Source: a bacterium
GTDB lineage: Bacteria; Patescibacteriota; Minisyncoccia; Phycocordibacterales; Zambryskibacteraceae
NCBI GenBank assembly: GCA_030649135.1
Contig: JAUSGI010000002.1
Coordinates: forward strand, 1-64,000
Direction: 5' to 3'
Length of the DNA: 64,000 nt
Part shown: positions 36,139 through 59,550 of the stretch, in pieces
Layout of the letters: every line of letters starts with the position of its first letter
Numbering within the stretch: the first letter of the stretch is position 1
Program-made: the position numbers and the translations under genes
The notes under the pieces: model-generated
Told to the model about the DNA's origin: nothing
Databases searched by the model: none
Seen by the model: the letters and a program-made list of their open reading frames with translations, nothing else

Positions 36139-36139
36139 A

Positions 36140-42372: not shown

Positions 42373-42785
42373 GAGTTTTCATTATGGATGCTATCGGGAG
42401 AAAAAACCAGGTATTTAAACACAAAAAAACTATAGACGGCGACCAGACCGAGAACAAAAAATTGAGAGATTAGGTAATGAATATGAAGCATATCCACACT
42501 TATGTATAGGAGTAAAGCATTAACGCCTAGATTTAAAATCTGAATTCCTAGATAAACGAGAGACTGCTGTCTGATTTTCTCTTTTGTATAGTCGTTGAAA
42601 GTGAAAAACTTCTGCATCATGAAACTCACGGCAACCGCCACGATGAAGGCTACGACGGAAGCCAGCAAATACCACATATAAAAAAAGTGTACCAAGATAA
42701 AAAGCATGGTTAGATTTATAACTGCGGCAGAACCACCGGAGATAAGATAGCGAATGGCGCGATGATTAAGGATGATTTTTATCAT
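42369..42785 (-). CDS. GtrA-family protein (polyprenol-P-sugar translocation accessory)
   Basis: Four-TM ~130-aa protein; RYLISGGSAAVINLTMLFIL GtrA signature. Confidence 0.8.
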   Translation of the reverse strand: MIKIILNHRAIRYLISGGSAAVINLTMLFILVHFFYMWYLLASVVAFIVAVAVSFMMQKFFTFNDYTKEKIRQQSLVYLGIQILNLGVNALLLYISVDMLHIHYLISQFFVLGLVAVYSFFVFKYLVFSPDSIHNENS

Positions 42786-42825
42786 TTGGGTATCTGTAAG
42801 GCGCTATGATAGTATAAACGCTAAG

Positions 42826-43383
42826 ATGATAAAAGAATACCTAGAAAAATCCTTGGCGGTAAAAAATGCCGCGCTGACCGATCAAAGCTTCCTTGAAAAT
42901 GCGGAGAAAGCGGGACGGCAAATTTATGACTCGCTGATGGCCGGTAAACATATTTATATCGCCGGTGTTGGCGGAGCAGCCGCAGAGTCGCAACATTTCT
43001 CCGCAGAACTCTTGGGTAAATACTCTGCGATGAGGAGAGCTTTTCCGGCAGTAGCCTTAACTACCGACTCCTCAATGCTTACTGCTTGGGCAAATGATAC
43101 CAGCTTTGACTTTATATTTTCGCGCCAACTTGAAGGCCTTGGAAAAGAAGGGGATATATTTGTCGCTCTCTCCGCGGGAGGAAACTCACCTTGTATCGTA
43201 GAAGCTCTTAAGACGGCAAACTCTATCGGAATGATCTCCATTGGTCTTTTGGGTAAAAGTGGCGGAAAAGCCAAAGAAATGTGCACCATTCCCATCGTCG
43301 TCCCTTCAGATGTTACTTCTCACATTCAAGAAACCCATCTCATGCTTGTTCACTTTTTCTGCGAATATTTAGAACCGCAGTAA
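42826..43383 (+). CDS. gmhA: D-sedoheptulose-7-phosphate isomerase (SIS domain)
   Basis: GVGGAAAESQHFSAELLGKY, ALTTDSS, FSRQLEGLGKEGDIFVALSAGGNS and VPSDVTSHIQETH align with the GmhA consensus. Start moved to the ATG at 42826 to avoid overlapping GtrA. Confidence 0.85.
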   Translation: MIKEYLEKSLAVKNAALTDQSFLENAEKAGRQIYDSLMAGKHIYIAGVGGAAAESQHFSAELLGKYSAMRRAFPAVALTTDSSMLTAWANDTSFDFIFSRQLEGLGKEGDIFVALSAGGNSPCIVEALKTANSIGMISIGLLGKSGGKAKEMCTIPIVVPSDVTSHIQETHLMLVHFFCEYLEPQ

Positions 43384-43463: not shown

Positions 43464-44141
43464 ATGCCCACGATTCTCAAGGCCATTCTTTGTGATGTCG
43501 ACGGAGTGCTCGTCGACACAGAGGGTCTGCATTTTCAGGCGTGGGATTGGATTTGTCGTGATATCGGAGGACAACCCCTCACTCAGGAAGAACACGCTAC
43601 TCTCGTTGGGAAAGACGGGCCAGTCATCATGAGGGAACTTTCCCAGATGAAGGGGTTCGGCGGCGATCTGACCAAACTCAATGACCGTTGCCGAGAGAAG
43701 TACATCGAGTTACGGCAGACTGGGAACATCCCAGTCATCATGGAGAACGTTATGCTTCTTCGTGAGTTTGCCGAGCTGTACTCGGGCTTAAGGTTCGCGG
43801 CTGTTTCTTCCGATACTCACGACCATATTCAGCAGAACCTTCGGGTAGCTGGGCTTGAAAATTTCTTCGAACTGGCAGTTTCCGCCCATTCAGACGGTTT
43901 GAAGAAGAAGCCCGCCCCCGACGTGTGGTTGGTGGCGATGAAGAGACTCGGAGTCGCTCCAGAAGAATGCCTAGCTTTCGAAGATTCACCAGCCGGAGTC
44001 GAATCTGTCACCAGCGCCGGGGTCAGGGTAGTGGCGCTACCCAGCCCCTCAACTGTATCCTGTAGCTTCCCGACCGCTCACACGGTCATCAAACCAGGAG
44101 AAAGGAAAAACGCCAGAGAAATCCTTGCGCGCGTGATGTAG
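43464..44141 (+). CDS. HAD-superfamily phosphatase (subfamily IA, beta-PGM-like) on a GC-rich island; candidate heptose-bisphosphate phosphatase
   Basis: ILCDVDGVLVDTE motif I; S/T motif II; K...AFEDSPAGVES motifs III/IV. Confidence 0.7.
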   Translation: MPTILKAILCDVDGVLVDTEGLHFQAWDWICRDIGGQPLTQEEHATLVGKDGPVIMRELSQMKGFGGDLTKLNDRCREKYIELRQTGNIPVIMENVMLLREFAELYSGLRFAAVSSDTHDHIQQNLRVAGLENFFELAVSAHSDGLKKKPAPDVWLVAMKRLGVAPEECLAFEDSPAGVESVTSAGVRVVALPSPSTVSCSFPTAHTVIKPGERKNAREILARVM

Positions 44142-44182: not shown

Positions 44183-44674
44183 TTACGATTTTTCTTTATA
44201 AATTTTAAGAATCTTTTCTATAATATTTGTCGTCGACTGAACACGGCCAGGAATAATTACCACCTTATCTACATTCTCGCGCACAAAGTCTGCTTGAATA
44301 TTTTGTTCCACAGTATAATCTCCACCTTTAGTATAAATGTCAGGGTGGACTGCTTTCAAAAAAGTGCCCGGGTCTTTTTCATCAAAAATATGAACGTAGT
44401 CGACGCAAGCCAGAGCTGCCACCACTTCCGCGCGTTCACGTTCAGGAATGATTGGACGAAGTTTTGATTTGTATTGTCTTACCGAAGCATCTGAATTTAT
44501 ACCCACTACTAGAATATCACCAAGCAATTTACTTTCTTCTAGAAGTATTTTCTGGCCGATGTGGAATACATCAAAAGCACCGTTGGTAGCTACAATTTTT
44601 TTACCATGCTTTTTGAGTTCCTCGACTCTTGCTTCAAGCTCGGAGAGAGAAACAATTTTGTGAGCTGTTTTCAT
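44183..44674 (-). CDS. D-glycero-beta-D-manno-heptose-1-phosphate adenylyltransferase (RfaE/HldE domain II, cytidylyltransferase fold)
   Basis: IVATNGAFDVFHIGQ (the GxFDxxHxGH motif), INSDASV and YTKGGDY match HldE C-domains. The track's N-terminal extension (start 44845) is implausible; start set at MKTAHKI. Confidence 0.8.
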   Translation of the reverse strand: MKTAHKIVSLSELEARVEELKKHGKKIVATNGAFDVFHIGQKILLEESKLLGDILVVGINSDASVRQYKSKLRPIIPERERAEVVAALACVDYVHIFDEKDPGTFLKAVHPDIYTKGGDYTVEQNIQADFVRENVDKVVIIPGRVQSTTNIIEKILKIYKEKS

Positions 44675-44769
44675 ATCAGACAGTATACAGCTGAAAAAAT
44701 ACTTGACAAGTAGGCTAAATCTATTATAATCAGAAGCAGACACAATCAATATAAACGCGAGGAGAACGT

Positions 44770-45504
44770 ATGAACTTCGCTGAGTTCTGCTCAAAACAAA
44801 GCAGTATCTACGACGACATGCGGAAGCAGGAATGCGAGGAATCACGGATCACAGGGATGATGGAAGATCCCGGGCTCGTCACTAGGAGAGGCGGGTTTTT
44901 TCTCTCCCTCATTCACCCGCCTGAGTTTGCTCAGAAAGTAGCGGATTTCTCCGCCAAGGTTGGCGCCCTGATGCCAGCAATGGTTTACAGCAACAAGGAG
45001 ATACACACGACCGTCGGGTCAATTTCCACTTCGGTCATCCCACACTTCTATTTCGACGGAAACCGTGAGGACCATGCGCACCAGCTTTCCGTCATCGAAC
45101 GCGTGGCGGAGGAGACAGCAAAGAGAGTGAAAGCGGGGGTATGCAAAATTGGTTTTATTACGCCCTGCATCCTTCTGCCGAATCTCATCATCGCGCCGGG
45201 CGAAGCGAATCAGAGCGTCTTCGAAGTGACGACCGCGCTGACCGAATTCGGTACACAGATGGGGTTAGCAATGGCCCCATGCAAAAACGGCCATGTGACA
45301 GTCAACCGCTTCACCGAAGCGAAGAGTGTAGGGGAAATATCCGATATTCTTAGGTTGATGGAGAAGGAGCCACCCTTTGGTGTCAGTCATCCGATCGGGA
45401 TCGCAGCGGGTTACACACTGCGTCACGAATCCGAACGAAATGTTACTGACCTTCGCGAAACACCCGGGCACTTCCACGGCACCAAGTTCTTCCGGTTCCA
45501 ATAA
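44770..45504 (+). CDS. Hypothetical protein on a GC-rich island
   Basis: 244-aa ORF with typical coding periodicity and its own terminator. No motifs recognised. Confidence 0.4.
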   Translation: MNFAEFCSKQSSIYDDMRKQECEESRITGMMEDPGLVTRRGGFFLSLIHPPEFAQKVADFSAKVGALMPAMVYSNKEIHTTVGSISTSVIPHFYFDGNREDHAHQLSVIERVAEETAKRVKAGVCKIGFITPCILLPNLIIAPGEANQSVFEVTTALTEFGTQMGLAMAPCKNGHVTVNRFTEAKSVGEISDILRLMEKEPPFGVSHPIGIAAGYTLRHESERNVTDLRETPGHFHGTKFFRFQ

Positions 45505-45541: not shown

Positions 45542-46264
45542 TTAATACGCGCTGATGCCATAGCCCGCAGCCTTGGCATCATCGTAGAACATTCGTACTG
45601 TTTCGAGCGAGTAGACGTCGTGGTCCTTGCCGACGAGCGACAACTTCTTGAGGATGTCGTTGGTTGCCGTGATGATGTGACAACCGACGGAGTCGGCCTG
45701 GAAGACATTGAGAAGCTCGCGTGGGCTGGCCCAGATGAGCTCAGCCTTCGGCCTCGCTCTCATGATCTCGACTGCCTGTTGCATTAACGGCATCGGATCA
45801 ACCCCGGTGTCAGCGATACGCCCTGCAAATACCGAGATGATGGCCGGTGTCCCTGGTGAGAGATGCTCGGTCACGGCCTTCACTTGTTCCAGAGTGAGTA
45901 ACGCCGTGACGTTGAGCTTCACGCCAGCGTGCGACAGCCGCTCGATAAGCGGGCCACTCGACTCCCCTGTCGTGTTGGTGACTGGAATCTTGACGTAGAC
46001 GTTATCGCCCCACGAGGCGATGACGCGCGCTTGCGCCTCCATCTCATCGAAGTCGTCAGCGAAAACTTCGAACGACACCGGGCGATCCGAGATAGTGGCG
46101 AGCACTTCCTTGGCAAACGCCTTGTAGTCAGTGACACCCGCCTTCCTCATCAGCGTAGGGTTGGTCGTGAACCCTTTAATGAGGGGGTTCGCGTACATCT
46201 CCTTCATGCCGGTGAGGTCCGCGCCGTCTGCGAATAACTTGATTTTGAGTTCTTGGATGTTCAT
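45542..46264 (-). CDS. Transaldolase/fructose-6-phosphate aldolase family (short Tal type) on a GC-rich island
   Basis: FADGADL, TTNPTL, VKIP (Schiff-base Lys), NVTALLT, SVFAGRIAD. Confidence 0.8.
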   Translation of the reverse strand: MNIQELKIKLFADGADLTGMKEMYANPLIKGFTTNPTLMRKAGVTDYKAFAKEVLATISDRPVSFEVFADDFDEMEAQARVIASWGDNVYVKIPVTNTTGESSGPLIERLSHAGVKLNVTALLTLEQVKAVTEHLSPGTPAIISVFAGRIADTGVDPMPLMQQAVEIMRARPKAELIWASPRELLNVFQADSVGCHIITATNDILKKLSLVGKDHDVYSLETVRMFYDDAKAAGYGISAY

Positions 46265-47226
46265 GAGTTTTTCTCCTTTAAGATTTTCACTAAATCTTTC
46301 CTTCTGGGTGGCATAGTACCATGAATTTTAGTTGAAAGTGCTCCCCAGATATTGGCTATCCTAAGAGATTCTTCAGGTCGGTTTCTATCTCCAAGACTAA
46401 AAGCCGCCAAAAAAGCATCGCCTGCCCCGCAAACATCGACCGCTTTTACTTTATATGGCCGGCTTTTTATATACTGGTCACTAAATATAGCTATGGAGCC
46501 TAGACCACCCAGTTTAACCACAACATTTTTTAGCTTTAACTTTTTCATTATTACCAAAAGAGACTGCTCAGGCTTTTGGAGATTAAACTTAGGGTACACA
46601 CTCTTAGCTTCTTTTTGGTTTAAAAACATCGTGTCTACCCCTTTATATAAATGGTGATTCGAAGGACGGTGAAAAACTTGCACATCGACATGCAAAGGTT
46701 TTTTATATTTCTTACTCATAGCAACAATATTTTTAATCAACTTTTTTGAGAGCATTCCATGCTGGGGGTCCATAATAACAACAACGTCTACATGTGGGGC
46801 ATTAGCTTCCACTAATTTAATTATTTTTTTCTCCAGATCGGAATTAATGTAGTGATTATCAACTTTGTTAACTTGTAGGAGTTTCAGATTTTTGTCATAC
46901 CATCTTCTCTTAACAGTCGTTTTCCGGGTCGGATCTATTAAAAAAATCTTTTTTAATTTTGGATGTGTCCACGAATCATAATATTTCGCATCTTCATCGT
47001 CACCCAAGATGGTAACAAAAGTTACCCTCCCCCCGAGATTTAAAATATGACTGGCAATCAGTCCATTACCACCGAAAAATATTGATGACTTTCTCTCTTC
47101 CATTTCTGGCGCAGGAGCATCAGGAGACAGACCGATAGTATTGCCATAAATATAAATATCCAGTATAGTGTCGCCCACTAGCAACACCTTTTTATCTTTA
47201 AATGACCTTATAATATCTGGCTTCAT
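46261..47226 (-). CDS. D-glycero-beta-D-manno-heptose-7-phosphate kinase (RfaE/HldE domain I, PfkB family)
   Basis: VLLVGDTILDIYIYGNTIGLSPDAPAPE parallels the HldE N-terminus; DVCGAGDAF PfkB signature. Confidence 0.8.
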   Translation of the reverse strand: MKPDIIRSFKDKKVLLVGDTILDIYIYGNTIGLSPDAPAPEMEERKSSIFFGGNGLIASHILNLGGRVTFVTILGDDEDAKYYDSWTHPKLKKIFLIDPTRKTTVKRRWYDKNLKLLQVNKVDNHYINSDLEKKIIKLVEANAPHVDVVVIMDPQHGMLSKKLIKNIVAMSKKYKKPLHVDVQVFHRPSNHHLYKGVDTMFLNQKEAKSVYPKFNLQKPEQSLLVIMKKLKLKNVVVKLGGLGSIAIFSDQYIKSRPYKVKAVDVCGAGDAFLAAFSLGDRNRPEESLRIANIWGALSTKIHGTMPPRRKDLVKILKEKNS

Positions 47227-47250: not shown

Positions 47251-48027
47251 ATGAAATATAAATCTATTCTTCTAGATGTCGACGGGACACTTGTCGCTGT
47301 CGGACCCAATACAATTCCATCTGAAAGAGTGCGAGAAGTCCTAAGCCATGCCAAATATGTGGCACATGTTTCTCTTGTTTCTGGACGTTGTCTTGATTGG
47401 CTCAAAGAAATCTTTCGAGTCCTTGATTTGACAGCTCCTTCTATTATCAACGGTGGTTCACAAATCATTAATCCAAAAACGGGAGAGATTCTTTGGGAGC
47501 GGCCAATCACGCAAGAAGATGTGGGAAAAGTGCTAAGAATAGTTACAAGAGACGGGATTCCTTTTGTGGTCAGTGACAACGGTATTGAGTATGAGAATCC
47601 ACCCCAGTCCGAATTTACTAATCCCCTTGCTATAAAACTTTCGTATTTTGATTCTAAAGAGAAATCTGACCAGTGTCTAAAGATTCTAGAATCGATACAG
47701 GGTATTTCGGCCCATAAAACTTTTTCCTGGAATAAAGAAAGAAACTACATAATGGATATATACATCACTCATAGAGAAGCCACCAAACATCACGCTGCCG
47801 AAGAATTAGCAAAAATTTTAGGAATTGAAACTCATGAAATGATAGGGGTTGGTGATGCTCGAAACGACGTTCCCCTGCTCAATGTGTGTGGACTAAAGGT
47901 GGCTATGGGTAACGCCGACGACAAACTGAAGAAAATTGCTCATTACATTGCCCCTAGTGTAGACGAGGACGGTGTGGCTCACGTGGTGGAGAAGTTTATT
48001 CTTTCTCAATTGGTCTGTTCTGGCTAG
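47251..48027 (+). CDS. HAD-IIB (Cof-type) sugar phosphatase
   Basis: ILLDVDGTL; SGR; GDARNDVPLL. Confidence 0.8.
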   Translation: MKYKSILLDVDGTLVAVGPNTIPSERVREVLSHAKYVAHVSLVSGRCLDWLKEIFRVLDLTAPSIINGGSQIINPKTGEILWERPITQEDVGKVLRIVTRDGIPFVVSDNGIEYENPPQSEFTNPLAIKLSYFDSKEKSDQCLKILESIQGISAHKTFSWNKERNYIMDIYITHREATKHHAAEELAKILGIETHEMIGVGDARNDVPLLNVCGLKVAMGNADDKLKKIAHYIAPSVDEDGVAHVVEKFILSQLVCSG

Positions 48028-49153
48028 CTTCTTTGAGAGCTTCTACTGCCGCAGTTATAACATCTTCAAGACGGGTGGACTCCGCTATGCGCTCCGCTTC
48101 TTTAACATCGTGATTCCGCGTGTTCATAATACAAAGTAATGGTTTGGGTCCTCCGGGGGGAAAGACCATCTTGTGAATTTTGCCTTGCGGCGGCTGGTCC
48201 CATGGATTAACTGGGCCGAGGATATCGACCGTTGGGATATTAAAGGCTTCAGCAATGTATAGAGGGCCAGTATTGACACTCACAAAAACATCCAGCTTCG
48301 ATATGATCGCCTTTAATTCGTCTATTGATACAGAAGTGGTATCAGTCACCATTGATTTATCCTCGATCGCCAACATCATTTCATTAGACTCGCGTAGGTC
48401 GTTCCTACCGCCAATAACAAAAATATGGACGCTAAACTTTTCGATAAGATGATTCGCTACTTTGGCAAAATTTTTTGGACTCCATTGCTTTTCTTTATTA
48501 CCAGAACCGGCTGCAATACCAACGATATATTTGTATGGTTCACATATTTGAGAAATTATCTCCGCAGCCCTTTTTTCAGCAGTTTCGGAAAAGCCAAGGT
48601 GTTTGGTGGTATCGTCTGTAAAAATACCGAGTGATTCGAGAGCTTTCAATCTTTCTCTGGGAGCATATCCATCCAACTGATGCGGAAAGGTCTTAATAAG
48701 CCTCTGAAGAATTTTATAGGGCCTGGTCACATCATGGGCTACACCTCCCACGGCAGCCGGAGCTATCACTAAGGGAATCCCGGCAAGGTAAAGTAGAGAG
48801 GTGTGTTTAAATGATGGGCCAGTCACTATCGCTACTTCAGGATGATATTTTTTAATACGTTCTGTAGCCCCTTCATCCTCCAGATCAACATATTCATTAA
48901 CCAATCTACTGTCCGACAAAAGTGGACGATGCAATTTAGAATTACCCGCTACGATAATACGCGCTTTCGGTAAGTGCGCTCGAATGGCACGCAAGACTGG
49001 TGTAGCACAGACCACATCGCCCAGTTTACCAGTTGGCACCACCACAATATCGGAAATGCTTTTGGGAATCTTAGTGGCAGTTCCGTGGAAAAGTGCCCTT
49101 ATTAGACATTGGACAAGAAGTAGCATTCTATTGGCTCTATTTAAAAAATCCAT
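47996..49153 (-). CDS. ADP-heptose:acceptor heptosyltransferase (GT9)
   Basis: PTGKLGDVVCATPVLRAIRAHLP N-terminus; IGIAAGSG... VNTGPLYIAEAFNIPTVDILGP C-terminal GT9 pattern. Confidence 0.8.
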   Translation of the reverse strand: MDFLNRANRMLLLVQCLIRALFHGTATKIPKSISDIVVVPTGKLGDVVCATPVLRAIRAHLPKARIIVAGNSKLHRPLLSDSRLVNEYVDLEDEGATERIKKYHPEVAIVTGPSFKHTSLLYLAGIPLVIAPAAVGGVAHDVTRPYKILQRLIKTFPHQLDGYAPRERLKALESLGIFTDDTTKHLGFSETAEKRAAEIISQICEPYKYIVGIAAGSGNKEKQWSPKNFAKVANHLIEKFSVHIFVIGGRNDLRESNEMMLAIEDKSMVTDTTSVSIDELKAIISKLDVFVSVNTGPLYIAEAFNIPTVDILGPVNPWDQPPQGKIHKMVFPPGGPKPLLCIMNTRNHDVKEAERIAESTRLEDVITAAVEALKEASQNRPIEKE

Positions 49154-49216
49154 GTCGTTTTTTATAATTATAATACAAAGTGGGGCGGAGAGCTTGTGAC
49201 TCCCCGCCCCGGTTTC

Positions 49217-50743
49217 TCAAGTAGTTTTTCCGCCCTCCCATCGCGTCCCGATTTCTATCTGGAGACGCTTTCTGCGGTACTCCTCCGAGTTGACGCCAAA
49301 CTCCGCCCATTGTTGCAGTTCCTCGATTCTTTCCGGAGGTACTGTCGTGTTCTTCATGACAGCATTCCTCCAGTTAAAAATATCGGGGTCGAAGTCTTGC
49401 ACCAAGTACCCGTCACGCAGAGCCAAATCATGTAGGTTACTGCCGGGCAGAGGAACAGGGATCTTGAAAGAACAGTAATCTGCCCCCGCACCCACCAGCC
49501 GCCGGCCGAGCTCGATCGAGGACATCATCTCTGCCTCGGTCTCGTCCGGGAAACCGATCATCATGTTGATGGGGCACGTGATACCGATATTCCTCGCAAC
49601 CCTCACCAGCTCGACTACATCGAGTCGTTCATGGTTGAGCTTCCTCGTCGCATGCTGGTCAAGAATGCGCTGGGAAGCTGACTCCACCGGGAAAACGATC
49701 TGTGTGAGACCGCAGTCATAGAGGAGTTGCAGGAACTCTACATCGATGACCGGCTTGCCTCCGACGCTTCCCTTGAGAAAGTGCACCAGATTCACTCCGT
49801 TCACGTCAGCGAGCTTGAGCCCCAGGCCTCGGACTTTCCCGAGAATCTTACGCATCCGCGGCTTGTTGGCCAGGAGCGTATCATCCTCGAGGTAGACTTT
49901 TGTGACACCAAGGCTCTTGAGTATTGAGAGCTCTTCGAACACCCGCGCTTCGGACTTGAAGCGCAACTTGGCGATCCCGCCACTCTCCTCTTCATTTTCA
50001 CTTTCTTTAGAGATGTGGCAGTACGAGCACTTGAAAATACATCCGCGGGATGTTTGCATGTTCCCGGAACGCTCTGGGTCTTTGAGAAAGGCCCTTCCGC
50101 CAGCTGCTTCGGCACGATCGTAATGCATCCAGGGAAGCTTGTGCCATGCCGGGATGGGCAGAGCATCAAGATTAGTGAGCGTATCCCCCACTTGAGGAAA
50201 ACGTCTCACGATTCTCCCATTCTGCATGGTGACTGTTCCAGAGACGGCGAGACTTTCCCCCGCTTCCCAGGCTTGGATGACCTCGACGACCACCCGCTCA
50301 CCTTCGGTATTGCAAATGGCATCTACGCCGGCCGCGAGGAACCGTTTGTGAAGAGCTCGGGCGTTAACGCCACCGGCAATGACCAGGATTTCCGGAGATA
50401 CTGCCTTGGCCGCCTTGACGACTTCAAGTGCCATCCTGTGCTGCGGAGTGAAAATGGAGCTAAGACCGACAACGTTGTAGCCACCACGAGCGATGACCTC
50501 ACTCATCCGATCGGTCGTCATGCCGATACGGGTGAGGCCGTTTTCCTGCATGACAAGCTTGTCGAAGGTGTCTTCAAGCTTGTCATCCGGCGTGCCGACA
50601 TTGGCGTCGAGCAACTCCGACTCAATACCGGCTCGTTCGAGCGAGGCATCGAGATACAAGAGACCGAGCGAACCATCGACACGACGGGCTTCTCTCTTCG
50701 CCAACTGGGTAGGATGGTAAATGAGCAGAGCTTTTGCCTTCAC
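49217..50743 (-). CDS. B12-binding-domain radical SAM enzyme (class B; probable C-methyltransferase or rearrangement enzyme) on a GC-rich island
   Basis: N-terminal cobalamin-binding Rossmann region (VVGLSSIFT... VIAGGV); radical SAM cluster motif RGCIFKCSYCH (CX3CX2C). Confidence 0.8.
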   Translation of the reverse strand: MKAKALLIYHPTQLAKREARRVDGSLGLLYLDASLERAGIESELLDANVGTPDDKLEDTFDKLVMQENGLTRIGMTTDRMSEVIARGGYNVVGLSSIFTPQHRMALEVVKAAKAVSPEILVIAGGVNARALHKRFLAAGVDAICNTEGERVVVEVIQAWEAGESLAVSGTVTMQNGRIVRRFPQVGDTLTNLDALPIPAWHKLPWMHYDRAEAAGGRAFLKDPERSGNMQTSRGCIFKCSYCHISKESENEEESGGIAKLRFKSEARVFEELSILKSLGVTKVYLEDDTLLANKPRMRKILGKVRGLGLKLADVNGVNLVHFLKGSVGGKPVIDVEFLQLLYDCGLTQIVFPVESASQRILDQHATRKLNHERLDVVELVRVARNIGITCPINMMIGFPDETEAEMMSSIELGRRLVGAGADYCSFKIPVPLPGSNLHDLALRDGYLVQDFDPDIFNWRNAVMKNTTVPPERIEELQQWAEFGVNSEEYRRKRLQIEIGTRWEGGKTT

Positions 50744-50801: not shown

Positions 50802-51977
50802 TTAAGTCAAGGTCTTTTTTATAAATTCGGCGATAGCGATGCCGCGTTTTTCCCAAGTGTATTTATCTTTAGTAATCCAGGCTTGGTTCGACAAACTTTG
50901 GGCCAGTTCTCGGTCATTATAGATTTTTAGGATAGCCTTCGCCCACCCTTTCGGAGTATTCGTCTCTATAATCAGGGCATCGGCTCCGTCGGTAAGCACC
51001 TCTTCGATACATGCTGTATGACCACCAACAATCGGCCGGCGACTAGCAAGTGCCGGAAACATTTTGGCAGGAGAATCCCCTATTAAATCTTTCTTTCGTT
51101 TTGGGATAAGAATGATATCGAATGCCTGTAGATATTTCGGTATCTCGCTCCTTTCCTGCCACGGCACAATAATTACCCGCCCTTGGACACCACTTTCTTG
51201 CGCAATTTCTCGTAACCATCCCGCATTCTCGTTCAGTTCACCCACAATCACAGCCACGATATTTGTCGGTAGAGATGCAAGGCTCTTCACGATATCGTCC
51301 ACTTCATAGTAGTCATTATTCGGATTGGCTCCGACCACACCGGTGTATCCTATAAGAAATAAATCGTTGGGAAGCTCTAATTCTTTCCGAAATGTGTATC
51401 TGTCTTGCGAATAGTCAAACCATGAATCCTCGGCCGCGCTACACAGAGAGAGCAGAATACTGTGATTGGATTTTTGATAATACCGTTTAAGTCCAGAACT
51501 GATGGCAATTACGCCGTCCGCCCATCTTACTGAAACCGTATTCAAAAATTGCCTAGGCTTGCTTTCCAGCACCGAATGTATCTCGAAAAACACTTTTTTC
51601 TGCAAAATCATCTTCGCCGCCAAGACTGCGGGGAAAAGCGACTCGTCTCGAAAATAAACCGCGTCGAATTCTCCCGTATGCATGAGGAAAAACCAGGTGA
51701 GACGAAGATTGGCAACAAAAAACATAAATAGTTCATACCAACTCTTACCGCCATACCTGGAGACGGTATTTGTCGCTTGTAGGCAGACAATATCAAATGG
51801 CTGATGGATACCCATCTTGCTGAAGAAGACGTGCCTGTCTCTATCTTGGTCCGTTGTCATAAACCTGACTTGAATATCTTTGTCGGTATTTACGGCTTCA
51901 CATGTTTTAGCCAGATTATAAACATTGGTCCTTCCGGCCAAAAGATTTACCCTAGAGATAAAGAGTATGCGTATCAT
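50802..51977 (-). CDS. Glycosyltransferase family 4
   Basis: GT-B C-terminal domain GGHTACIEEVLTDGADALII. Confidence 0.8.
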   Translation of the reverse strand: MIRILFISRVNLLAGRTNVYNLAKTCEAVNTDKDIQVRFMTTDQDRDRHVFFSKMGIHQPFDIVCLQATNTVSRYGGKSWYELFMFFVANLRLTWFFLMHTGEFDAVYFRDESLFPAVLAAKMILQKKVFFEIHSVLESKPRQFLNTVSVRWADGVIAISSGLKRYYQKSNHSILLSLCSAAEDSWFDYSQDRYTFRKELELPNDLFLIGYTGVVGANPNNDYYEVDDIVKSLASLPTNIVAVIVGELNENAGWLREIAQESGVQGRVIIVPWQERSEIPKYLQAFDIILIPKRKKDLIGDSPAKMFPALASRRPIVGGHTACIEEVLTDGADALIIETNTPKGWAKAILKIYNDRELAQSLSNQAWITKDKYTWEKRGIAIAEFIKKTLT

Positions 51978-52723
51978 AGTCTTACATCTTTACGCTTGAC
52001 TTCTTCTTGATGATAAAGTGGAAGAAGAGCCTCGTAAGAACCGACTTCGGCCCCAATACTTTCAAAGTAACGCGGGAAATATTTCCCGCAATTTAACCGC
52101 AAGGTTTCGGAACTAAGTTTTATTTTGGATAGAAAGTTAAAAAGGTCAAATCCAGCGAGGGTAGAAACACCGGCATAATCGTAGTCGATAAGGTAAATAT
52201 CTTTTTCCGAGACAAGGACATTATCCGGTGTCATGTCTCCATGTTGGGTAATCACGGGCAATCTAATATTATCGGGAAGTGTCTGAAATTCCTTGGTATT
52301 TTGTGCCAAATGAGACTGCCAAGCAATATAGTTTTCCATCACCAGCTCCACGTCTTGAGTTGAAGCCGAAAATCTCACCCCTGGGCAAACGGATTCAATA
52401 CAAAATACTATTTTCCCATCATCATAGAGATAAAGTGGAAGAGCAAAGAGGCTGGAATGAACACTTCCCTTCACCTCTTCTTGAAGCTTCTGAAGATTAT
52501 GATGATTCTCCCTGATACTCTCTCCCGCCGCGTAAGTACGAGTAGTTTTAACACAAAGGGTTGGCCATTTTTCCTCTTCTTCAAAGACAAAGATGAGAAC
52601 CTTGCCTTGGTCGACTTTAGTCCCAGAAGCCGGAGTACTGGTCTTCATAAACGACAGTTTGCTCTCTCTGGCATGAAGCCATTCTGGATGCTCTTTTATA
52701 AGCTTGGTTAGAATAGCAATCAT
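51974..52723 (-). CDS. Protein-kinase-like phosphotransferase (APH/ChoK/WaaP-type); candidate sugar (heptose) kinase
   Basis: HGDMTPDNVLV catalytic loop; IDYDYAG (DFG-equivalent). Confidence 0.65.
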   Translation of the reverse strand: MIAILTKLIKEHPEWLHARESKLSFMKTSTPASGTKVDQGKVLIFVFEEEEKWPTLCVKTTRTYAAGESIRENHHNLQKLQEEVKGSVHSSLFALPLYLYDDGKIVFCIESVCPGVRFSASTQDVELVMENYIAWQSHLAQNTKEFQTLPDNIRLPVITQHGDMTPDNVLVSEKDIYLIDYDYAGVSTLAGFDLFNFLSKIKLSSETLRLNCGKYFPRYFESIGAEVGSYEALLPLYHQEEVKRKDVRL

Positions 52724-53622
52724 TTCTGTACTACTATGCCAAAACTAAAGAAAAAATAGCGATAGAGCCACAACAAGATTGATGAGTGCACAATGGAGTG
52801 CAGGGCATACGAGAGCGCATTTAGATTGTCATATGGAATCATCATTCGTGGCAAATTATATCCCGGGTATGTAAGGTAAAATTCTATATTATTGAAGCCG
52901 GCTTCGCGGAGAAGTTTCTCATAGCCACTTTTGGTATAAGTGTAGGTATCGTAACTTCTCCCTCTCCTCAACTTCATGTAGATATTAGCTACAAAACGTG
53001 GCATGTAGCTCGTAAAGTAAAGTCCGCTGTGGTCCCGGCCTCGTAGATAGGCCAAGGCGAAGCGATTCTCGATGCCAATATAGAGATGCCCGCCTTTTTT
53101 TAATAAATCTTTGGCGATTTTTAAACTGGCGATTTGCGCCTCTCGGGGGTCGTGAAAGCGCTCTGTAGCACCGACCCATTCCAGAAGTCCATTCATGACA
53201 ATTAAGTCAAAGCTCTCTTTTCCAAAAGGTTTGTCCAAAATATCTCCCACATAGACCTCGATATTTTTGAGACCCTCTTTTTCGGCTCTTAATTTCAGAA
53301 ACTTCATCCGCAAATATGAACCATCAAGAGCCACAACACTTGACGCAACCCTGGCCAGCGGAATACTAATCCGCCCCATACCGGCCCCAACGTCCAAGAC
53401 TCTAAAGTCCTCGGCCAGAGGAATAACGAAGCGCCAATCAGCCCTGTTTTCCTCAAAAGTTTGGTCAAATTTATTGCTGAAACGACTTCTAAACTCATCC
53501 CATCCCTCCTTTTCTATCACTTCAACGGCTCTCTCCAGCTCTTCTTTGGGCGCTTTTCCCCAATAACGATCTTCGGAGAAAAAGGGTATGCCTTCAACTA
53601 TTTTCTTATAATTTGCGTTCAT
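52720..53622 (-). CDS. Class I SAM-dependent methyltransferase
   Basis: VLDVGAGMGRISIPLA; FDLIVMNGLLEW; LKKGGHLYI. Confidence 0.8.
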   Translation of the reverse strand: MNANYKKIVEGIPFFSEDRYWGKAPKEELERAVEVIEKEGWDEFRSRFSNKFDQTFEENRADWRFVIPLAEDFRVLDVGAGMGRISIPLARVASSVVALDGSYLRMKFLKLRAEKEGLKNIEVYVGDILDKPFGKESFDLIVMNGLLEWVGATERFHDPREAQIASLKIAKDLLKKGGHLYIGIENRFALAYLRGRDHSGLYFTSYMPRFVANIYMKLRRGRSYDTYTYTKSGYEKLLREAGFNNIEFYLTYPGYNLPRMMIPYDNLNALSYALHSIVHSSILLWLYRYFFFSFGIVVQK

Positions 53623-54233
53623 TTTGTTACCTCTAAATTCAGAGAATTATCACGATTTGATTTGTCATGAAATTCATGATGTTCGGCACTTTCGACATCC
53701 CATGGTCTCAACTGACCGGAAAAACCCGCTTCTTTAAGAATCTTTTTTGCATAATTAAAATTCCAGATAGTGCAATGCCTATCAAAGTCCTGATCTTGGC
53801 CAAGAAGCTGATTAATAATGCTATCCGTTTCTTTCCCGGACGCGTTATAAAAATCTATGAGCTTGTCGAAATCAGGAACTCCAAATCTTAGGATACCTCC
53901 CGGCTTAAGTACTCGCCGCCATTCTGCCAAAGTCCCAAGGAGATTGCTTCTGGGAATATGCTCGAGAACGTGACTGGCGTACACCATGTCAACCGACTCA
54001 TTGGGAAAGACCGAAAGGTCTCGGATATCCAAAACCAAATGGGTCTTGCGAAACGGAAAAGCATCAATATTTATAAATTCCGATGAGGTATTTACCCCGC
54101 TGCCCAAATTCAGATAAATCTTTCCATCTTTATTCTTTGGAATCCTCTCCCTAAAAATTAAAAACTTTATACGCCACAAGAGACGATAAAGCCATAATCT
54201 CGATGGTAGAGTCCATGCTTTGAATTTATCCAT
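53619..54233 (-). CDS. Class I SAM-dependent methyltransferase
   Basis: LNLGSGV; VDMVYASHVLEHI; LKPGGILRF. Confidence 0.8.
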   Translation of the reverse strand: MDKFKAWTLPSRLWLYRLLWRIKFLIFRERIPKNKDGKIYLNLGSGVNTSSEFINIDAFPFRKTHLVLDIRDLSVFPNESVDMVYASHVLEHIPRSNLLGTLAEWRRVLKPGGILRFGVPDFDKLIDFYNASGKETDSIINQLLGQDQDFDRHCTIWNFNYAKKILKEAGFSGQLRPWDVESAEHHEFHDKSNRDNSLNLEVTK

Positions 54234-54241
54234 AGAAAAAC

Positions 54242-55207
54242 CTATTTCTGCTGGTTTTGCTTATCTATCCAACGGTAAGTTTCAGCCAGTCCGATTTGAA
54301 GTTTCTGACTGGGGGCCCAACTTAATTTTTCTTTTATCAATTTATTATCGGAGTTACGGCCTCGCACACCAAGCGGACCTTCAATATGTTTGATACTTAG
54401 CTTTTTACCGGCAATCTCCATGACCATTTCTGCCAATCCGTTGATAGTCACCATCTCATCCGAACCAATATTAACTGGCCCAGTAAAGTCAGAATCCATA
54501 AGCCGTCTGACACCGTCTAGGCACTCATCAATATATAGAAACGAGCGTGTTTGCTTACCGTCACCCCAGATTTCAATTGTGCCCCCTTCCGATGCTTCGG
54601 CGACCTTCCTACACATGGCGGCTGGGGCTTTTTCCTTCCCACCGCGCCAAGTACCTTCCGGCCCGAAGATATTATGAAACCGCGCAATGCGAACATCCAG
54701 ACCATAGTTTCGGTAGTAGGAAAGATACATCCGTTCACTAAAAAGTTTTTCCCAACCATATTCGCTGTCGGGCGCGGCGGGGTAAGCCGATTCTTCCGAA
54801 CACTTGGGATTATCTGGGTCAAGTTGGTTATACTCGGGATAAATACAGGCAGAAGAAGAGTAGAAGATTTTTTTTATGCCAGCTTTTTGTCCAAAGGAAA
54901 CAACATTTAAGTTGATGCTGGCAGAATTGTGCATCACGTCGGCATCATGTTCCCCGCTAAAGATGTAACCGGCACCACCCATATCGGCAGCCAATTGATA
55001 AACCTCGTCAAACGGCTGGTCCAGTACATTTTTAACCACACTCTGGTCTCGTAGGTCGCCAATAACAAATTCATCAGCCACAGTTGGGGAAAATTCTGGC
55101 TGCTTCAAGTCTACGCCTCGGACCCAGGCACCCTCGCCCTTTAACTTCTTAACCAAATGGCCACCAATAAACCCGCCAGCACCACAGACTAGTATTTTTT
55201 TTGCCAT
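54242..55207 (-). CDS. NAD-dependent nucleotide-sugar epimerase/dehydratase
   Basis: VCGAGGFIGGHL; SSSACIYP; YGWEK (YxxxK). Confidence 0.8.
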   Translation of the reverse strand: MAKKILVCGAGGFIGGHLVKKLKGEGAWVRGVDLKQPEFSPTVADEFVIGDLRDQSVVKNVLDQPFDEVYQLAADMGGAGYIFSGEHDADVMHNSASINLNVVSFGQKAGIKKIFYSSSACIYPEYNQLDPDNPKCSEESAYPAAPDSEYGWEKLFSERMYLSYYRNYGLDVRIARFHNIFGPEGTWRGGKEKAPAAMCRKVAEASEGGTIEIWGDGKQTRSFLYIDECLDGVRRLMDSDFTGPVNIGSDEMVTINGLAEMVMEIAGKKLSIKHIEGPLGVRGRNSDNKLIKEKLSWAPSQKLQIGLAETYRWIDKQNQQK

Positions 55208-55220
55208 AAGTGGGTGTATT

Positions 55221-56246
55221 CTACCTCGTTAAGAATTGAGGCGCAATTTCATTAATAACCTTGCGGGCTAAGATTTTAGGAGTAAATTCTTGCTGGTATA
55301 GCTGGTAAGCATGTTCCGCAACTTGTTCAAGTTCTTTCGGGTGACCCCTTAACTCAACAATCTTACGAGCCAACTCACGATAACCCCCCGGTGGCACGGT
55401 AAAGCAGGTTTGGTTATCGGCGAGAAACTCCATCACACCTTTATTTTCTCCAGTAAGATACGGGAGTTTCATCGCCATGCTTTCAAAAACTTTATGTGGA
55501 ATCGTGGTGTGAACCCGCGGATGATTAGCTAATTGTCCAAGCGACAGGTGACATTCCGTCATTTTTTGTCGCAATTCATCTATGGGAAGTCTCGTAGTAA
55601 CAAGTTCGAGATTCTTGGGTTTAAGCTCATCTATCAATTTTTCAATTTCTTTTAACAGTAAACCACGACCAATAATTCGGATTTTAATATCTTCTTGCTC
55701 TAACTCTTTGGCCGCCCGAACGACAACTTCTGCCCCAGCTTCTGGCAGAAACATGCCACGGAAAACAACAGTAAATTGTTTTAATTTGGCAATGGCGGGG
55801 TCAAAGTAAAATTGTTTATCGTCCGTCCCAACGAAGTGGACCGAGATTTTGTCCGGATTAATTCGGAAAATTTTGACCACTAAATCTTTTTGAGACTGAC
55901 ACTCAAGAAATACCTTATCGGCCAAACTGAAAGCCAGGAAATCTATTAGCCAATATCGCACCAGATTCGCGCCCCGGGATATCACCATGCTGTCATAAAA
56001 AGTGGCCAGAGCATTGTATATAATTCTTTTTCTGGTAAAAAATCTAAGAAAGATAATTAAGATACTTGAGGCGTAGCCTATCATTACTAAATCACTCTCT
56101 GGTTCCAGATTACGAAAGTCTTTCAAAAGCTTGCAATATCCATTAAAGCCGAGCTCTTTGACTTCTACTCCATTTTCTTTTAAACCCATGACGGTAATCC
56201 GGTCTCGCGGATTATCGAGTTTGAAGCTCACGTAGCAGATTTTCAT
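55221..56246 (-). CDS. Glycosyltransferase (GT-B, GT4-like)
   Basis: C-terminal nucleotide-binding domain FRGMF... IIGRG... KVFESMAMKLPYLTG. Confidence 0.65.
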   Translation of the reverse strand: MKICYVSFKLDNPRDRITVMGLKENGVEVKELGFNGYCKLLKDFRNLEPESDLVMIGYASSILIIFLRFFTRKRIIYNALATFYDSMVISRGANLVRYWLIDFLAFSLADKVFLECQSQKDLVVKIFRINPDKISVHFVGTDDKQFYFDPAIAKLKQFTVVFRGMFLPEAGAEVVVRAAKELEQEDIKIRIIGRGLLLKEIEKLIDELKPKNLELVTTRLPIDELRQKMTECHLSLGQLANHPRVHTTIPHKVFESMAMKLPYLTGENKGVMEFLADNQTCFTVPPGGYRELARKIVELRGHPKELEQVAEHAYQLYQQEFTPKILARKVINEIAPQFLTR

Positions 56247-57184
56247 AATTCTCGCGCCAACTTATCCATGAGTAGATTAAGGCTGTGGTCTTCTACCTTG
56301 AAGTTTTTTAGGTCCGGGTTCCTAACTTCGAGCTTCATCCCGCAAGCGGCAGCTTCAATTATTGTTTTATCCATACTTCCGGCAGGAGTGAAGTTGGCGT
56401 AAGTTTCGTGTGTTTGGTAAAGCTTGAGAGCCTCGACTTGATTTACCGGTCCGATGAATTTGATTTTATCGTTAAGATTTTGCTTTACACGTTCTCCATA
56501 TTCCTTATCATCCGGCAAAATAGGCCCGGCAATAGTTGCAGTATATTCGGTACCCCCGACCCAATCAATGAACTCTAAAACCTTCTTTACCGGAGAAATG
56601 CGGCCTAGGAAAAGAACGGAATTAGGTATTCTCTTTACACTTGGGTCAGGTTTGAAAAAATCAGTATCTATACCAGCGGGCATCAATTTAGTCTTTTTGA
56701 ATCTGGCAGTATAAGAACTCGGCGAAGTGCAGAAAACTTTATCTGAAAGTAATACGGCCATACGAGTCCATAAATTCCCCTTCGCATGATTCCTCCACAA
56801 ACATACTTTCTTGCCCATTAGCCACCACGATTTCCAACCGAGGATGACATACTCTTGATTCATGTGCACAAACACAGAATTATAATTTCTCCTCTCCCGC
56901 CAAATATATTCATAAAATCTGAAAATGTATTTGAATCTAGACCGACCACCCTCTTTGCCAAGAGATAGTACCTTAACATTTGCCGGTAAATGATAGCTCC
57001 CCCGTGAAATAATTTTTCCTCCAGAAAAATTATCGCCTTGCGATATTTCACGGGGTGAACCCCTCTCAAGACAGATTACTGTCACAAACTCAAATCGCTT
57101 AGCAAACTCCCGTACCCAGCGTACAAAGAAACCAAGCACAGGATTATTCTCGTCTAGTGATTGTGTAATTATTAGTAATTTCAT
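56243..57184 (-). CDS. Glycosyltransferase (GT-B, GT4-like)
   Basis: FLGRISPVKK... EAAACGMKL. Confidence 0.6.
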   Translation of the reverse strand: MKLLIITQSLDENNPVLGFFVRWVREFAKRFEFVTVICLERGSPREISQGDNFSGGKIISRGSYHLPANVKVLSLGKEGGRSRFKYIFRFYEYIWRERRNYNSVFVHMNQEYVILGWKSWWLMGKKVCLWRNHAKGNLWTRMAVLLSDKVFCTSPSSYTARFKKTKLMPAGIDTDFFKPDPSVKRIPNSVLFLGRISPVKKVLEFIDWVGGTEYTATIAGPILPDDKEYGERVKQNLNDKIKFIGPVNQVEALKLYQTHETYANFTPAGSMDKTIIEAAACGMKLEVRNPDLKNFKVEDHSLNLLMDKLAREL

Positions 57185-58266: not shown

Positions 58267-59550
58267 TCATTGAGTTGGTGTGTCTGGGGTCTTTTCCGCA
58301 TTTTCAGTTTGCTCTTCTTTTTTCATAAGTTCAAATGCTTGGCCGAGATATCTCAATACATGGTGCCCGACAAGATAATGGAATAGGAGGCCAACCAGTC
58401 CGGCAAGAATGACGAGCAAGAGGAGATAAACGAGATTGTCTTTGATAAATTTGCTAATAAGCGATGACGACGAGACTGCCGCTGTGACATCTCTGATATT
58501 GCCGGCCTTATCGAAGACTCGCACCATAACGTTTAAGTCGCCGCGAGCGAGCGGTATCTGAAAAGGACTCTCCGTTTGGACAAAAACGGGGGAGACGGTA
58601 ACTGGTTGGCTTTTATCAATTATTCCGACCTCATAATAATCCACTCCCGACAGATTATCCGTAGTAAAGAAAGAGATTATCGACCGTTCGACCAAATTCA
58701 CCGCTGCCAACAAATAACTAACTTCCGGTTTGAAGTCTGCCGGCGGGACAGTGTCAATTCTTATCAGAAAATGCCCAGTCGTCCCCCAGACTCCATTTTT
58801 ATTGGCTTTAATATGAAAATACCATAAGCCATCGGCCAAACTTTCAAACGCTTCTGAAGTCTCGTTGGCAGTAATGGAGTTCTCTGGGATTGTGGATGGT
58901 TTATCATCCAAAATATAACTAAATCCCGAAACGCCGGCATCCCGATCCCATGAGATTACCGGACTGTCATTGTTGTACCACTCACCCTGGAACGGATGGG
59001 TCTCCGAGAAGACCTTCACCCCTTCCGGAGCCTTCGGCACAATCGCATATTCCGCCCTGCCCAACTCTACTTCGGCTTCCGTACCTTGGCCATCATTCAA
59101 GAGTACTTTTGAATTAGCGCCAAAAGAGACCGTTGCCCAGCCAGTCCTCTTGGCTTTAAAAGTGATTGTCCCCACTAAACCGGAGTTCGTAGTAATACCG
59201 TCCGGTATGACACCGACATAACTGGCCGTACCGCGAGTGTTATCGTAACTTGGCGGTTCCACCCAGACACCGATAATAGAGAGGCCGCTCGACGGTTTTA
59301 TGATTTCCAGCTTATCTTTGTCGAAGTTAACCCTGATTTCAATACCATTGATTTCGGCGCCGTCTGTATCGACTAGAATCGGGATATTGAAGGTTGAGTT
59401 CTCGACAAAGCTGGCGGCACGGGGAGAGAATGAAAGTTCGATTTTCGGAATTAATTGCGAGACATCCAGAGAGACTGTCTCGGCGTATGTATGAGACCAG
59501 ATGAGAGCCGTGAGAACAAACAGTAGAAGTATTCTTGAAATACGTGCCAT
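58267..59550 (-). CDS. Cohesin-domain surface protein with signal peptide and C-terminal TM anchor
   Basis: Signal peptide MARISRILLLFVLTALIWSHTYA. The N-terminal ~140-aa beta domain parallels the next gene (SVGDTFSV... LSF... LQV pattern). A second beta module resembles the 60489 gene. C-terminal TM helix LVYLLLLVILAGLVGLLF followed by a charged tail. Confidence 0.6.
   Translation of the reverse strand: MARISRILLLFVLTALIWSHTYAETVSLDVSQLIPKIELSFSPRAASFVENSTFNIPILVDTDGAEINGIEIRVNFDKDKLEIIKPSSGLSIIGVWVEPPSYDNTRGTASYVGVIPDGITTNSGLVGTITFKAKRTGWATVSFGANSKVLLNDGQGTEAEVELGRAEYAIVPKAPEGVKVFSETHPFQGEWYNNDSPVISWDRDAGVSGFSYILDDKPSTIPENSITANETSEAFESLADGLWYFHIKANKNGVWGTTGHFLIRIDTVPPADFKPEVSYLLAAVNLVERSIISFFTTDNLSGVDYYEVGIIDKSQPVTVSPVFVQTESPFQIPLARGDLNVMVRVFDKAGNIRDVTAAVSSSSLISKFIKDNLVYLLLLVILAGLVGLLFHYLVGHHVLRYLGQAFELMKKEEQTENAEKTPDTPTQ

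Follow-up and report, generated by a model that had tools for sequence, protein, structure and literature searches.

The window analysed here is a 64,000-nucleotide (nt) stretch (positions 1 to 64,000 of the forward strand) of contig JAUSGI010000002.1, from the Zambryskibacteraceae assembly GCA_030649135.1 (Patescibacteriota). Its minus strand carries at 49217..50743 an open reading frame (ORF) with a GTG start, the translation of which is a 508-aa radical S-adenosylmethionine (SAM) enzyme with a B12-binding domain, termed rSAM below. A public Logan contig carries an identical 508-aa protein (P0001), called independently. An initial annotation had described this ORF as a B12-binding Rossmann domain joined to a CX3CX2C radical SAM core and located between glycosyltransferases (GTs) of families GT9 and GT4. 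This description is confirmed by the neighbouring GT9 (47996-49153) and GT4 (50802-51977) genes, and by the profile assignment it had put forward as a check, since both domains exceed their Pfam gathering (GA) thresholds. B12-binding PF02310 matches residues 26-155 at the N-terminus with 57.0 bits (GA 32.1), and Radical_SAM PF04055 matches residues 230-412 with 49.6 bits (GA 29.5).

The N-terminal Rossmann domain of B12-binding type extends over residues 1-200 (50144..50743, minus strand). The TIM-barrel core (residues 230-412; 49508..50056, minus strand) is also outlined by profile alignments to the cores of AprD4, OxsB, and MgmA. In 1-based residue numbering, the [4Fe-4S] motif CX3CX2C reads C235-IFK-C239-SY-C242 (nt 50018-50041), the same cysteines being numbered one lower (234/238/241) by the alignment tool. 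All three are kept in 159-160 of 160 aligned family members, while E286-D287-D288, N315-G316-x-N318, and E354 are invariant in the core. The AlphaFold model has a pLDDT of 88.9 and a pTM of 0.88. A class-B-type architecture, i.e. one with a cobalamin-binding domain, is supported for this protein.

Conservation in the N-terminal domain of the 160 sequences is highest in the loops that follow strands beta1, beta3, and beta4. The first of them, R21-x-D23-G-S25-L-G27, is devoid of the His of the DxHxxG motif, in agreement with the base-off/His-off mode seen in every class B enzyme solved so far. The loop after beta3 is S96-x-F98-T99-P100-Q101, and the loop after beta4 is G124-G125-V-N127-A128, with the GG pair present in 160/160 sequences. 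The SxL-like S96-x-F98 and G124-G125 are 26 residues apart, which is the canonical spacing, and the beta3 loop is where the lower-axial residues N186 of OxsB and W76 of TokK fall in the alignments. Residue 97 in this loop is Asn in the family consensus (146/160 sequences) and Ile in the window protein; Ile or Leu occur sporadically (14/160) and independently of the pathway variant. This residue, aligned to OxsB Asn186, was considered as a marker of methylases and non-methylases and abandoned, because the OxsB and TokK alignments differ by three positions.

A profile of the N-terminal 200 residues, compared with the whole PDB, retrieved only OxsB (E-value 1.1e-7), TokK (8.8e-6), and TsrM (0.009), and AprD4 was not matched by it even at E ≤ 10. 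Sequence features of cobalamin binding are thus present in the predicted N-terminal domain. Assignment to the cobalamin-binding class, which the initial annotation had made dependent on such features, holds on the grounds of the PF02310 match, S96-x-F98, the GG pair, and the matches to OxsB, TokK, and TsrM. We infer from these features that the enzyme would use cobalamin. Annotation of the 64-kb window, to which this survey applies, showed no genes for cobalamin uptake or salvage.

Examination of gene neighbourhoods disclosed a recurrent set of partners. In the first three relatives inspected (a Niyogibacteria chromosome and two large contigs, one from a metagenome-assembled genome (MAG) deposited as Deltaproteobacteria), rSAM adjoins genes for a GHMP kinase, a small haloacid dehalogenase (HAD) phosphatase, a nucleotidyltransferase (NTP-transferase), a SIS isomerase, and an aldolase of the transaldolase (TAL)/FSA type. 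To count neighbours, ORFs of 38 non-redundant orthologous loci of at least 15 kb were searched with proteins of this module, and genes up to 10 kb from rSAM were taken into account. Heptose-type GHMP kinase was found in 34/38 loci, transaldolase in 33/38, SIS/GmhA isomerase in 31/38, and GmhB-like HAD in 28/38. The NTP-transferase accompanies rSAM in 31-32 of the 38 loci with a median gap of ~130 bp, and in 24 loci it is located within 3 kb. Oxidoreductases of the DAO and GFO types are present in 21/38 and 15/38 loci, respectively. Next to 13 distant paralogs, each of these genes was found only 0-1 times. The GT4 of the type seen in the window occurs in 12/38 loci and the kinase of APH type in 0/38.

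The commonest gene order is NTP-transferase, rSAM, GT2, fused GFO+DAO oxidoreductase, HAD, GHMP kinase, SIS, TAL, methyltransferase, polytopic membrane protein, and GT4. The GT2 of this canonical module is ~307 aa long with two C-terminal transmembrane (TM) segments, and the polytopic protein of unknown function is ~560-610 aa long. The canonical order recurs in different classes of the candidate phyla radiation (CPR), and a rearranged form exists in DPANN archaea and in SAR11. We take the canonical gene set to be the GDP-glycero-manno-heptose pathway (GmhA, HddA, GmhB, HddC) with its own supply of sedoheptulose-7-phosphate, as tested here at the level of family assignments. The glycan-assembly context proposed in the initial annotation is confirmed, and it can be narrowed to heptose genes, which accompany rSAM in 31-34 of the 38 loci. 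The conserved partner is, more sharply, the route from sedoheptulose-7-phosphate to nucleotide-heptose, and not generic glycan genes or nearby O-methyltransferases. Judged from gene neighbourhoods, the role of rSAM is probably linked to the nucleotide-heptose pathway. This statistical and syntenic coupling in surface-glycan loci of CPR, DPANN, and SAR11 is a strong comparative-genomic link and previously unreported. Our literature survey, which included CPR heptose/B12 and radical SAM genes of SAR11 hypervariable regions, found no report that connects glycero-manno-heptose biosynthesis with an enzyme of radical SAM or B12 type, and none on the family studied here.

The window itself harbours, downstream of rSAM, a putative ADP-heptose-type branch of this pathway. 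A GmhA-like sedoheptulose-7-phosphate isomerase of the SIS family (42772..43383, plus strand; PF13580, 70 bits) has phosphoheptose isomerases as its top four NCBIfam models, at 123-172 bits and below the cutoffs (best 171.6 versus 276). It is followed by an HAD-IA phosphatase similar to beta-phosphoglucomutase (43464..44141, plus strand; Pfam/NCBIfam), which is GC-rich, and by an HldC-like protein of the heptose-1-phosphate adenylyltransferase type with a cytidylyltransferase fold (44183..44845, minus strand; PF01467). The best NCBIfam model of the latter is rfaE_dom_II, the adenylyltransferase domain of HldE (151.6 bits, cutoff 181.5). Transaldolase, expected to supply sedoheptulose-7-phosphate, is encoded at 45542..46264 (minus strand; PF00923, 153 bits) and exceeds the equivalog cutoff of TIGR02134 (373.8 versus 281.95 bits). 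The adjacent PfkB-family kinase (46261..47226, minus strand; PF00294) is HldA-like, of the heptose-7-phosphate kinase type, with rfaE_dom_I, the HldE kinase domain, as the best NCBIfam model (160.8 bits, cutoff 345).

A Cof-type HAD-IIB sugar phosphatase (47251..48027, plus strand; PF08282, 129.6 bits), whose position is kept in two of the related loci (L009 and L098), may be the heptose bisphosphate phosphatase of this variant, an uncertain identity for a candidate enzyme. The GT9-family glycosyltransferase (47996..49153, minus strand), a member of the heptosyltransferase family, passes the Pfam GA (PF01075, 51.8 bits). Heptosyltransferase I is its best NCBIfam model, at 62 bits and under the cutoff, and GT9 is found at the same place in L008, L009, L011, and L098, the closest relatives. 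All families of the heptose module are present in the window with heptose models ranking first, GmhA, HldA, and HldC being below the equivalog cutoffs. GHMP kinase, GmhB-like small HAD, and DAO were not found in the window.

The same arrangement exists in the four closest relatives, with GmhA detected in the window and L008, and not in L011 or L098. It is a minority variant, in which the PfkB/HldC/GT9 branch stands in place of GHMP kinase/NTP-transferase/GT2, while rSAM and transaldolase remain. Displacement of the activation branch by non-orthologous genes with retention of rSAM is the strongest argument that its role is tied to the heptose itself, and not to the nucleotide carrier or to genes for glycans in general. 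A published survey found, within freshwater CPR, genes for ADP-heptose biosynthesis in Paceibacteria only (PMC9166423).

Two membrane proteins are encoded beside the heptose genes. One is a small GtrA-like protein (42369-42785, minus strand), whose L098 ortholog carries PF04138 (GtrA_DPMS_TM). The other is a 568-aa polytopic protein (40666-42372, minus strand) with ~9 TM segments in a TM scan and a soluble C-terminal domain, for which no Pfam match was obtained. Their orthologs in L098 are 73-81% identical, and together they could form a pair for lipid-linked sugar transfer. The 568-aa protein was also considered as a homolog of the canonical ~559-aa unknown and rejected, similarity being undetectable by BLASTP (E = 0.57) and limited to architecture. 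A second sugar-nucleotide block (28060-36844, minus strand) contains an NTP-transferase, a 4,6-dehydratase, a DegT aminotransferase, a GT2, a GFO oxidoreductase, a fusion of LPG_synthase_TM with a methyltransferase, another methyltransferase, and a 582-aa protein with 8 TM segments. Its GT2 is the best match in the window to the canonical-module GT2 (105.8 bits). This block, 13-17 kb distant from rSAM, resembles the non-heptose half of the canonical module.

Homologs of rSAM number ~1000, and the top 120 are full-length and 50-85% identical. Named ones among them belong almost entirely to Patescibacteria/CPR (Parcubacteria, Niyogibacteria, Taylorbacteria, Lloydbacteria). A scan with one genome per species revealed orthologs of at least 45% identity in many CPR classes, and also in DPANN archaea (Pacearchaeota, Woesearchaeota), Pelagibacteraceae, a Nitrospirae MAG, and an Elusimicrobiota MAG. 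Paralogs in other phyla are 23-29% identical. In an exhaustive profile search ~25 clusters (50% identity) with scores above 300 bits make up the tight family, and below it lies a broad plateau of full-length relatives at ~205-260 bits (4,007 clusters at E ≤ 1e-30). The closest relatives of rSAM are unnamed CPR proteins in glycan loci. The link of the family to glycans, which according to the initial annotation hinged on closest homologs other than BchE or HpnP, is accordingly upheld.

Among curated models, the best for the window protein is NCBIfam Sden_1168 (NF038361), at 116 bits and far under the cutoff of 575, with residues 4-478 aligned to model positions 64-509, almost the full length. 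Scores for HpnJ (65.9 versus 577.6), BchE (65.8 versus 481), PhpK (57.8 versus 600), KedN5 C-methyltransferase (36.5 versus 700), and HpnR (35.2 versus 650) are also below the cutoffs. AprD4 (NF033070) is matched with 43 bits (cutoff 500), only along residues 153-474. Membership in any curated NCBIfam class B family was rejected, as all scores are far under the cutoffs. Sden_1168 is also the best model for all ten sister-group proteins (226-325 bits, cutoff 575), followed by HpnJ and BchE, and these matches place the family studied here as a divergent branch of the large class B "main cluster".

Several other forms of the family were noticed. Several loci (L035, L040, and L061 of DPANN; L030 and L049) have two copies within 10 kb. 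They are mainly of Pacearchaeota, and the pairs suggest that the tailoring step has been duplicated and diversified. Twelve IMG/VR contigs classed as viral (L085-L096) encode full-length relatives 34-42% identical. In L085 the relative is surrounded by TAL, SIS, an epimerase, and a GHMP kinase, and L086-L096 share a different conserved co-directional context. Giant proteins of 1,900-2,300 aa (P0150, P0151, P0164, P0239) have three to five matches to the family profile, as repeated B12-rSAM modules. In L005, a different 575-aa B12-binding radical SAM protein (2130-4742) is encoded right after a GT9 gene. It was rejected as a paralog of this family, being unrelated apart from the Cys motif (BLASTP E 5e-4 over 66 residues), and the pairing of GT9 with a B12-type radical SAM enzyme may have more than one origin.

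We have also addressed the question of horizontal transfer. The GC content of rSAM is 0.552 and at third codon positions (GC3) 0.640, compared with gene means of 0.431 and 0.429 in the window. The initial annotation had regarded the gene as horizontally acquired, on a GC island. In place of a contiguous island there is a mosaic, with five GC-rich genes, namely a 252-aa ORF at 39845-40603 (0.585), HAD-IA (0.540), a 244-aa ORF at 44770-45504 (0.532), TAL (0.567), and rSAM, interleaved with GC-poor HldC (0.391), HldA (0.372), and GT9 (0.439). In 36/38 orthologous loci, rSAM is richer in GC than its flanks (mean +0.059), in genomes of ~21% to 57% GC. Among all gene classes, rSAM has the highest GC3 offset (+0.065, positive in 84% of loci), with SIS and TAL next. 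More than 20 kb of the L098 contig, which comes from another sample, are collinear with the window and display the same mosaic, with rSAM at 0.558 (GC3 0.637), and TAL, HAD-IA, and the 244-aa protein also high. Protein identity between L098 and the window is 84.6% for rSAM, 84.7% for GT9, and 84.4% for TAL, in a block ranging from 60 to 90%.

The mosaic, the family-wide GC excess, and the equal divergence in L098 argue against recent import, and that proposal was rejected; these values indicate that rSAM has co-diverged with its neighbours. Orthologs of at least 45% identity in archaea, SAR11, and other phyla imply ancient transfer of the module between lineages. The 252-aa ORF (39845-40603, plus strand), with the highest GC in the window (GC3 0.688), has no match in Pfam or NCBIfam and no ortholog in the collinear 21.5-kb L098 stretch examined. 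It is a better candidate for recent insertion than rSAM.

Seven co-directional genes lie upstream of rSAM (50802..57184, minus strand), with 4-bp overlaps or gaps of up to 58 bp, and in the same order in L098. They encode, starting from the distal end, a weakly matched GT1 (56243-57184), a GT4 (55221-56246), a short-chain dehydrogenase/reductase (SDR) of the epimerase/reductase type (54242-55207), two SAM methyltransferases (53619-54233 and 52720-53622), a kinase of the choline/ethanolamine-kinase or APH type (51974-52723), and a GT4/Glycos_transf_1 (50802-51977), all on the minus strand. The APH-type kinase is conserved in L098 (8084-8797), and another gene of this type is located in L005 (20784-21530). 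Presence of the window kinase in the probable transcription unit of rSAM hints at a phospho-substituent on the glycan. Of the seven SAM methyltransferases counted nearby in the initial annotation, Pfam recognises five clear ones, the two above and those at 16448-17080, 29795-30415, and 30427-32106 (the fusion), with a marginal FkbM-type sixth (25981-26859).

Right after the rSAM stop codon, at 49182..49210 (minus strand), there is a terminator-like GC-rich 12-bp hairpin with a U-rich tail (dG -26.8 kcal/mol, z -5.6). An equivalent hairpin with a U-tract is located at the same position in the collinear loci L098 (about 11549-11576) and L008 (about 11541-11560). It is likely an intrinsic terminator or attenuator.

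On the other side of the glycan operon, cohesin-domain and dockerin/Big_6-domain proteins (58267-59550 and 61240-62580, minus strand) adjoin the locus and could be cell-surface scaffold proteins of a CPR genome. This block is conserved in L098 (1-3665; Dockerin_1 match). In the window it is flanked by two IS200/Y1-transposase-like genes (PF01797; 57353-58195 and 62692-63360, plus strand), both GC-poor (0.36 and 0.33). The GC-rich and seemingly ORF-free 5' end of the window is accounted for by an ORF of more than 1415 codons that runs off the window start (1 to about 4250, minus strand). Ribosomal or other structured RNA in the first 4 kb was rejected because of this ORF, and no Rfam match was obtained anywhere in the window.

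Comparison with described systems was possible on both the enzyme and the pathway side. The class B sugar C-methyltransferases GenK, GenD1/GntE, Fms7, and MoeK5 share with rSAM the N-terminal B12-binding Rossmann domain and the CX3CX2C barrel, act on unactivated carbohydrate carbons, and are encoded beside glycosyltransferases and sugar-nucleotide genes. The likeness is at class level. The GenK group tailors secondary metabolites (aminoglycosides, moenomycin) in actinomycetes, whereas the present family resides in primary surface-glycan loci of CPR, DPANN, and SAR11, beside heptose genes. Sden_1168 (SD_1168) belongs to the "main cluster" of class B together with Fom3, MoeK5, HpnJ, and GenK; the literature assigns no physiological substrate to it and gives C- or P-methylation as its reaction (PMC9204698). 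It provides the best curated model, and its large sister group bridges to the family studied here, but at 116 versus 575 bits rSAM is not a member.

OxsB (PDB 5UL2-4), which catalyses a cobalamin-dependent ring contraction, has in common with this family the S-x-N-F loop with the lower-axial Asn186. It differs in its length (744 aa), in extra N-terminal and helix-bundle domains, and in acting on a nucleotide substrate together with OxsA, and is ~14-16% identical to rSAM. AprD4 (PDB 6FD2), a radical SAM 1,2-diol dehydratase of apramycin biosynthesis, aligns with rSAM along the core alone; it binds no cobalamin (PMC12931638). Enzyme families of both the GmhA-HldA/HldE-GmhB-HldC (ADP-heptose) and the GmhA-HddA-GmhB-HddC (GDP-heptose) pathways flank rSAM, the two routes in different members. 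Described tailoring of heptose, e.g. that of the SDR type in Campylobacter jejuni capsules, employs dehydratases, epimerases, reductases, and O-methyltransferases, and no radical SAM/B12-type enzyme was found reported for it. In the literature consulted, the sole radical SAM enzyme acting on a heptose is AbmJ, a heptofuranose C3 epimerase of albomycin biosynthesis.

The best explanation, which we put forward tentatively, is that rSAM would be a class-B-type radical SAM tailoring enzyme of the nucleotide-activated heptose pathway that feeds a cell-surface glycan of CPR/Patescibacteria, most likely a C-methylating one. In the proposed scheme, transaldolase would supply sedoheptulose-7-phosphate and GmhA would isomerise it to glycero-manno-heptose-7-phosphate. 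A kinase, a phosphatase, and a nucleotidyltransferase would then activate the heptose, by the HldA/HldC ADP-heptose type in the window and by the GHMP-kinase/NTP-transferase GDP-heptose type in most relatives. Transfer would be performed by GT9 in the window or by membrane-anchored GT2 in most relatives. Reductive cleavage of SAM at the [4Fe-4S] cluster held by C235, C239, and C242 would generate a 5'-deoxyadenosyl radical, and the radical would remove hydrogen from one of the unactivated carbons of a heptose that is free or has already been attached. Methylcobalamin in the N-terminal domain would donate the methyl group, and the most likely outcome is a C-methylated heptose made by chemistry of the GenK/Fom3 type. 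As every characterised class B group includes C-methyltransferases (PMC12931638), methylation of a heptose carbon is the default expectation, and no sequence signature separates methylases from non-methylases (PMC12931638). We infer methylation and the heptose substrate from these relationships and from gene context, and rate C-methylation of heptose specifically at somewhat less than even odds.

Several observations weigh against C-methylation of heptose. Class B also contains non-methylating enzymes, and in Foldseek comparison the fold of rSAM is as close to cobalamin-independent AprD4 as to true methylases. AprD4 and ArsL illustrate that a Rossmann-like domain alone is no proof of cobalamin binding (PMC12931638). 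In addition, rSAM probably closes one transcription unit, the GT9 and heptose genes forming the next, and the terminator between them is mild evidence that the enzyme serves the GT4/methyltransferase/kinase part of the pathway. A cobalamin-independent radical dehydratase similar to AprD4 would abstract hydrogen beside a vicinal diol (e.g. the exocyclic C6-C7) with loss of water, and a nearby NAD(P)H reductase of SDR or GFO type would reduce the carbonyl to give a deoxy-heptose, leaving a structural role alone for the Rossmann domain. SDR and GFO/DAO genes are often found near rSAM, but GFO/DAO are absent from the window variant. The AprD4 model scores 43 versus 500 bits and its alignment omits the N-terminal domain, as does the PDB profile alignment (residues 228-468 only). 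The N-terminal profile finds OxsB, TokK, and TsrM without AprD4, and near-invariant corrin-face loops with the GG motif are hard to explain in a purely structural domain. We consider this dehydratase unlikely.

Use of cobalamin without methyl transfer is conceivable in an enzyme like OxsB, HpnJ, or BchE, in which cobalamin would mediate radicals or electrons in rearrangement, ring contraction, or oxidation of the heptose skeleton. OxsB is the best PDB match over both domains (E 1.1e-9) as well as for the N-terminal domain alone, and has the highest Foldseek TMq (0.70). HpnJ and BchE rank among the NCBIfam models that follow the best one, for the sister group as well as for the family itself. 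In the family consensus, S-S-N-F is the counterpart of the lower-axial S-V-N186-F of OxsB, in an ambiguous alignment and with Ile in the window protein. Such an enzyme appears likewise unlikely. The substrate might also be other than heptose, such as another glycan sugar, a phospho-substituent (undergoing P-methylation of the kind proposed for SD_1168/PhpK, in view of the nearby choline/APH-type kinase), a lipid carrier, or a protein, with heptose genes as mere fellow residents of surface-glycan islands. Probable cotranscription of rSAM with GT4, methyltransferase, SDR, and kinase genes, beyond a conserved terminator from GT9 and the heptose genes, agrees with this, as do the first rank of the Sden_1168 "P-methyltransferase" model for both rSAM and the sister group and the recurrence of an APH-type kinase in L098 and L005. 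However, the score of the Sden_1168 model is far below its cutoff, PEP-mutase/phosphonate genes were not seen in the window, and GT4 and APH-type kinase are far less frequent near rSAM orthologs than heptose genes. The association with heptose genes moreover persists where the activation branch is replaced, and is seen in both bacteria and archaea. A substrate unrelated to heptose seems to us unlikely to much the same degree as the two enzymes above.

Class B radical SAM enzymes number tens of thousands, and reactions are known for a few dozen. To our knowledge, none has been placed in the glycero-manno-heptose pathway. The protein described here represents an uncharacterised subfamily of class-B-type radical SAM enzymes, with a plausible methylation chemistry. 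It provides a concrete substrate hypothesis: heptose phosphates, ADP- or GDP-heptose, or a heptosylated acceptor. If none of these holds, rSAM would simply be a further uncharacterised member of class B within a glycan island. The enzyme group occurs mainly in CPR and DPANN, whose surface glycans probably mediate host attachment and are chemically unexplored. In the farthest-reaching proposal, which we regard as rather unlikely in its entirety, a module shared across domains (CPR, DPANN, SAR11, and some IMG/VR contigs) would make an undescribed radical-modified surface heptose in ultra-small, often host-dependent microbes with the use of scavenged cobalamin. This heptose would carry an added C-methyl group, amounting to an 8-deoxy-octose or a branched heptose, or have a rearranged skeleton. 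Should cobalamin indeed be the cofactor, a vitamin dependency of reduced genomes would follow, new for lineages thought to be largely B12-independent and unable to synthesise cobalamin. If the proposal is correct, primary heptose metabolism would have its first radical SAM step of B12 type.

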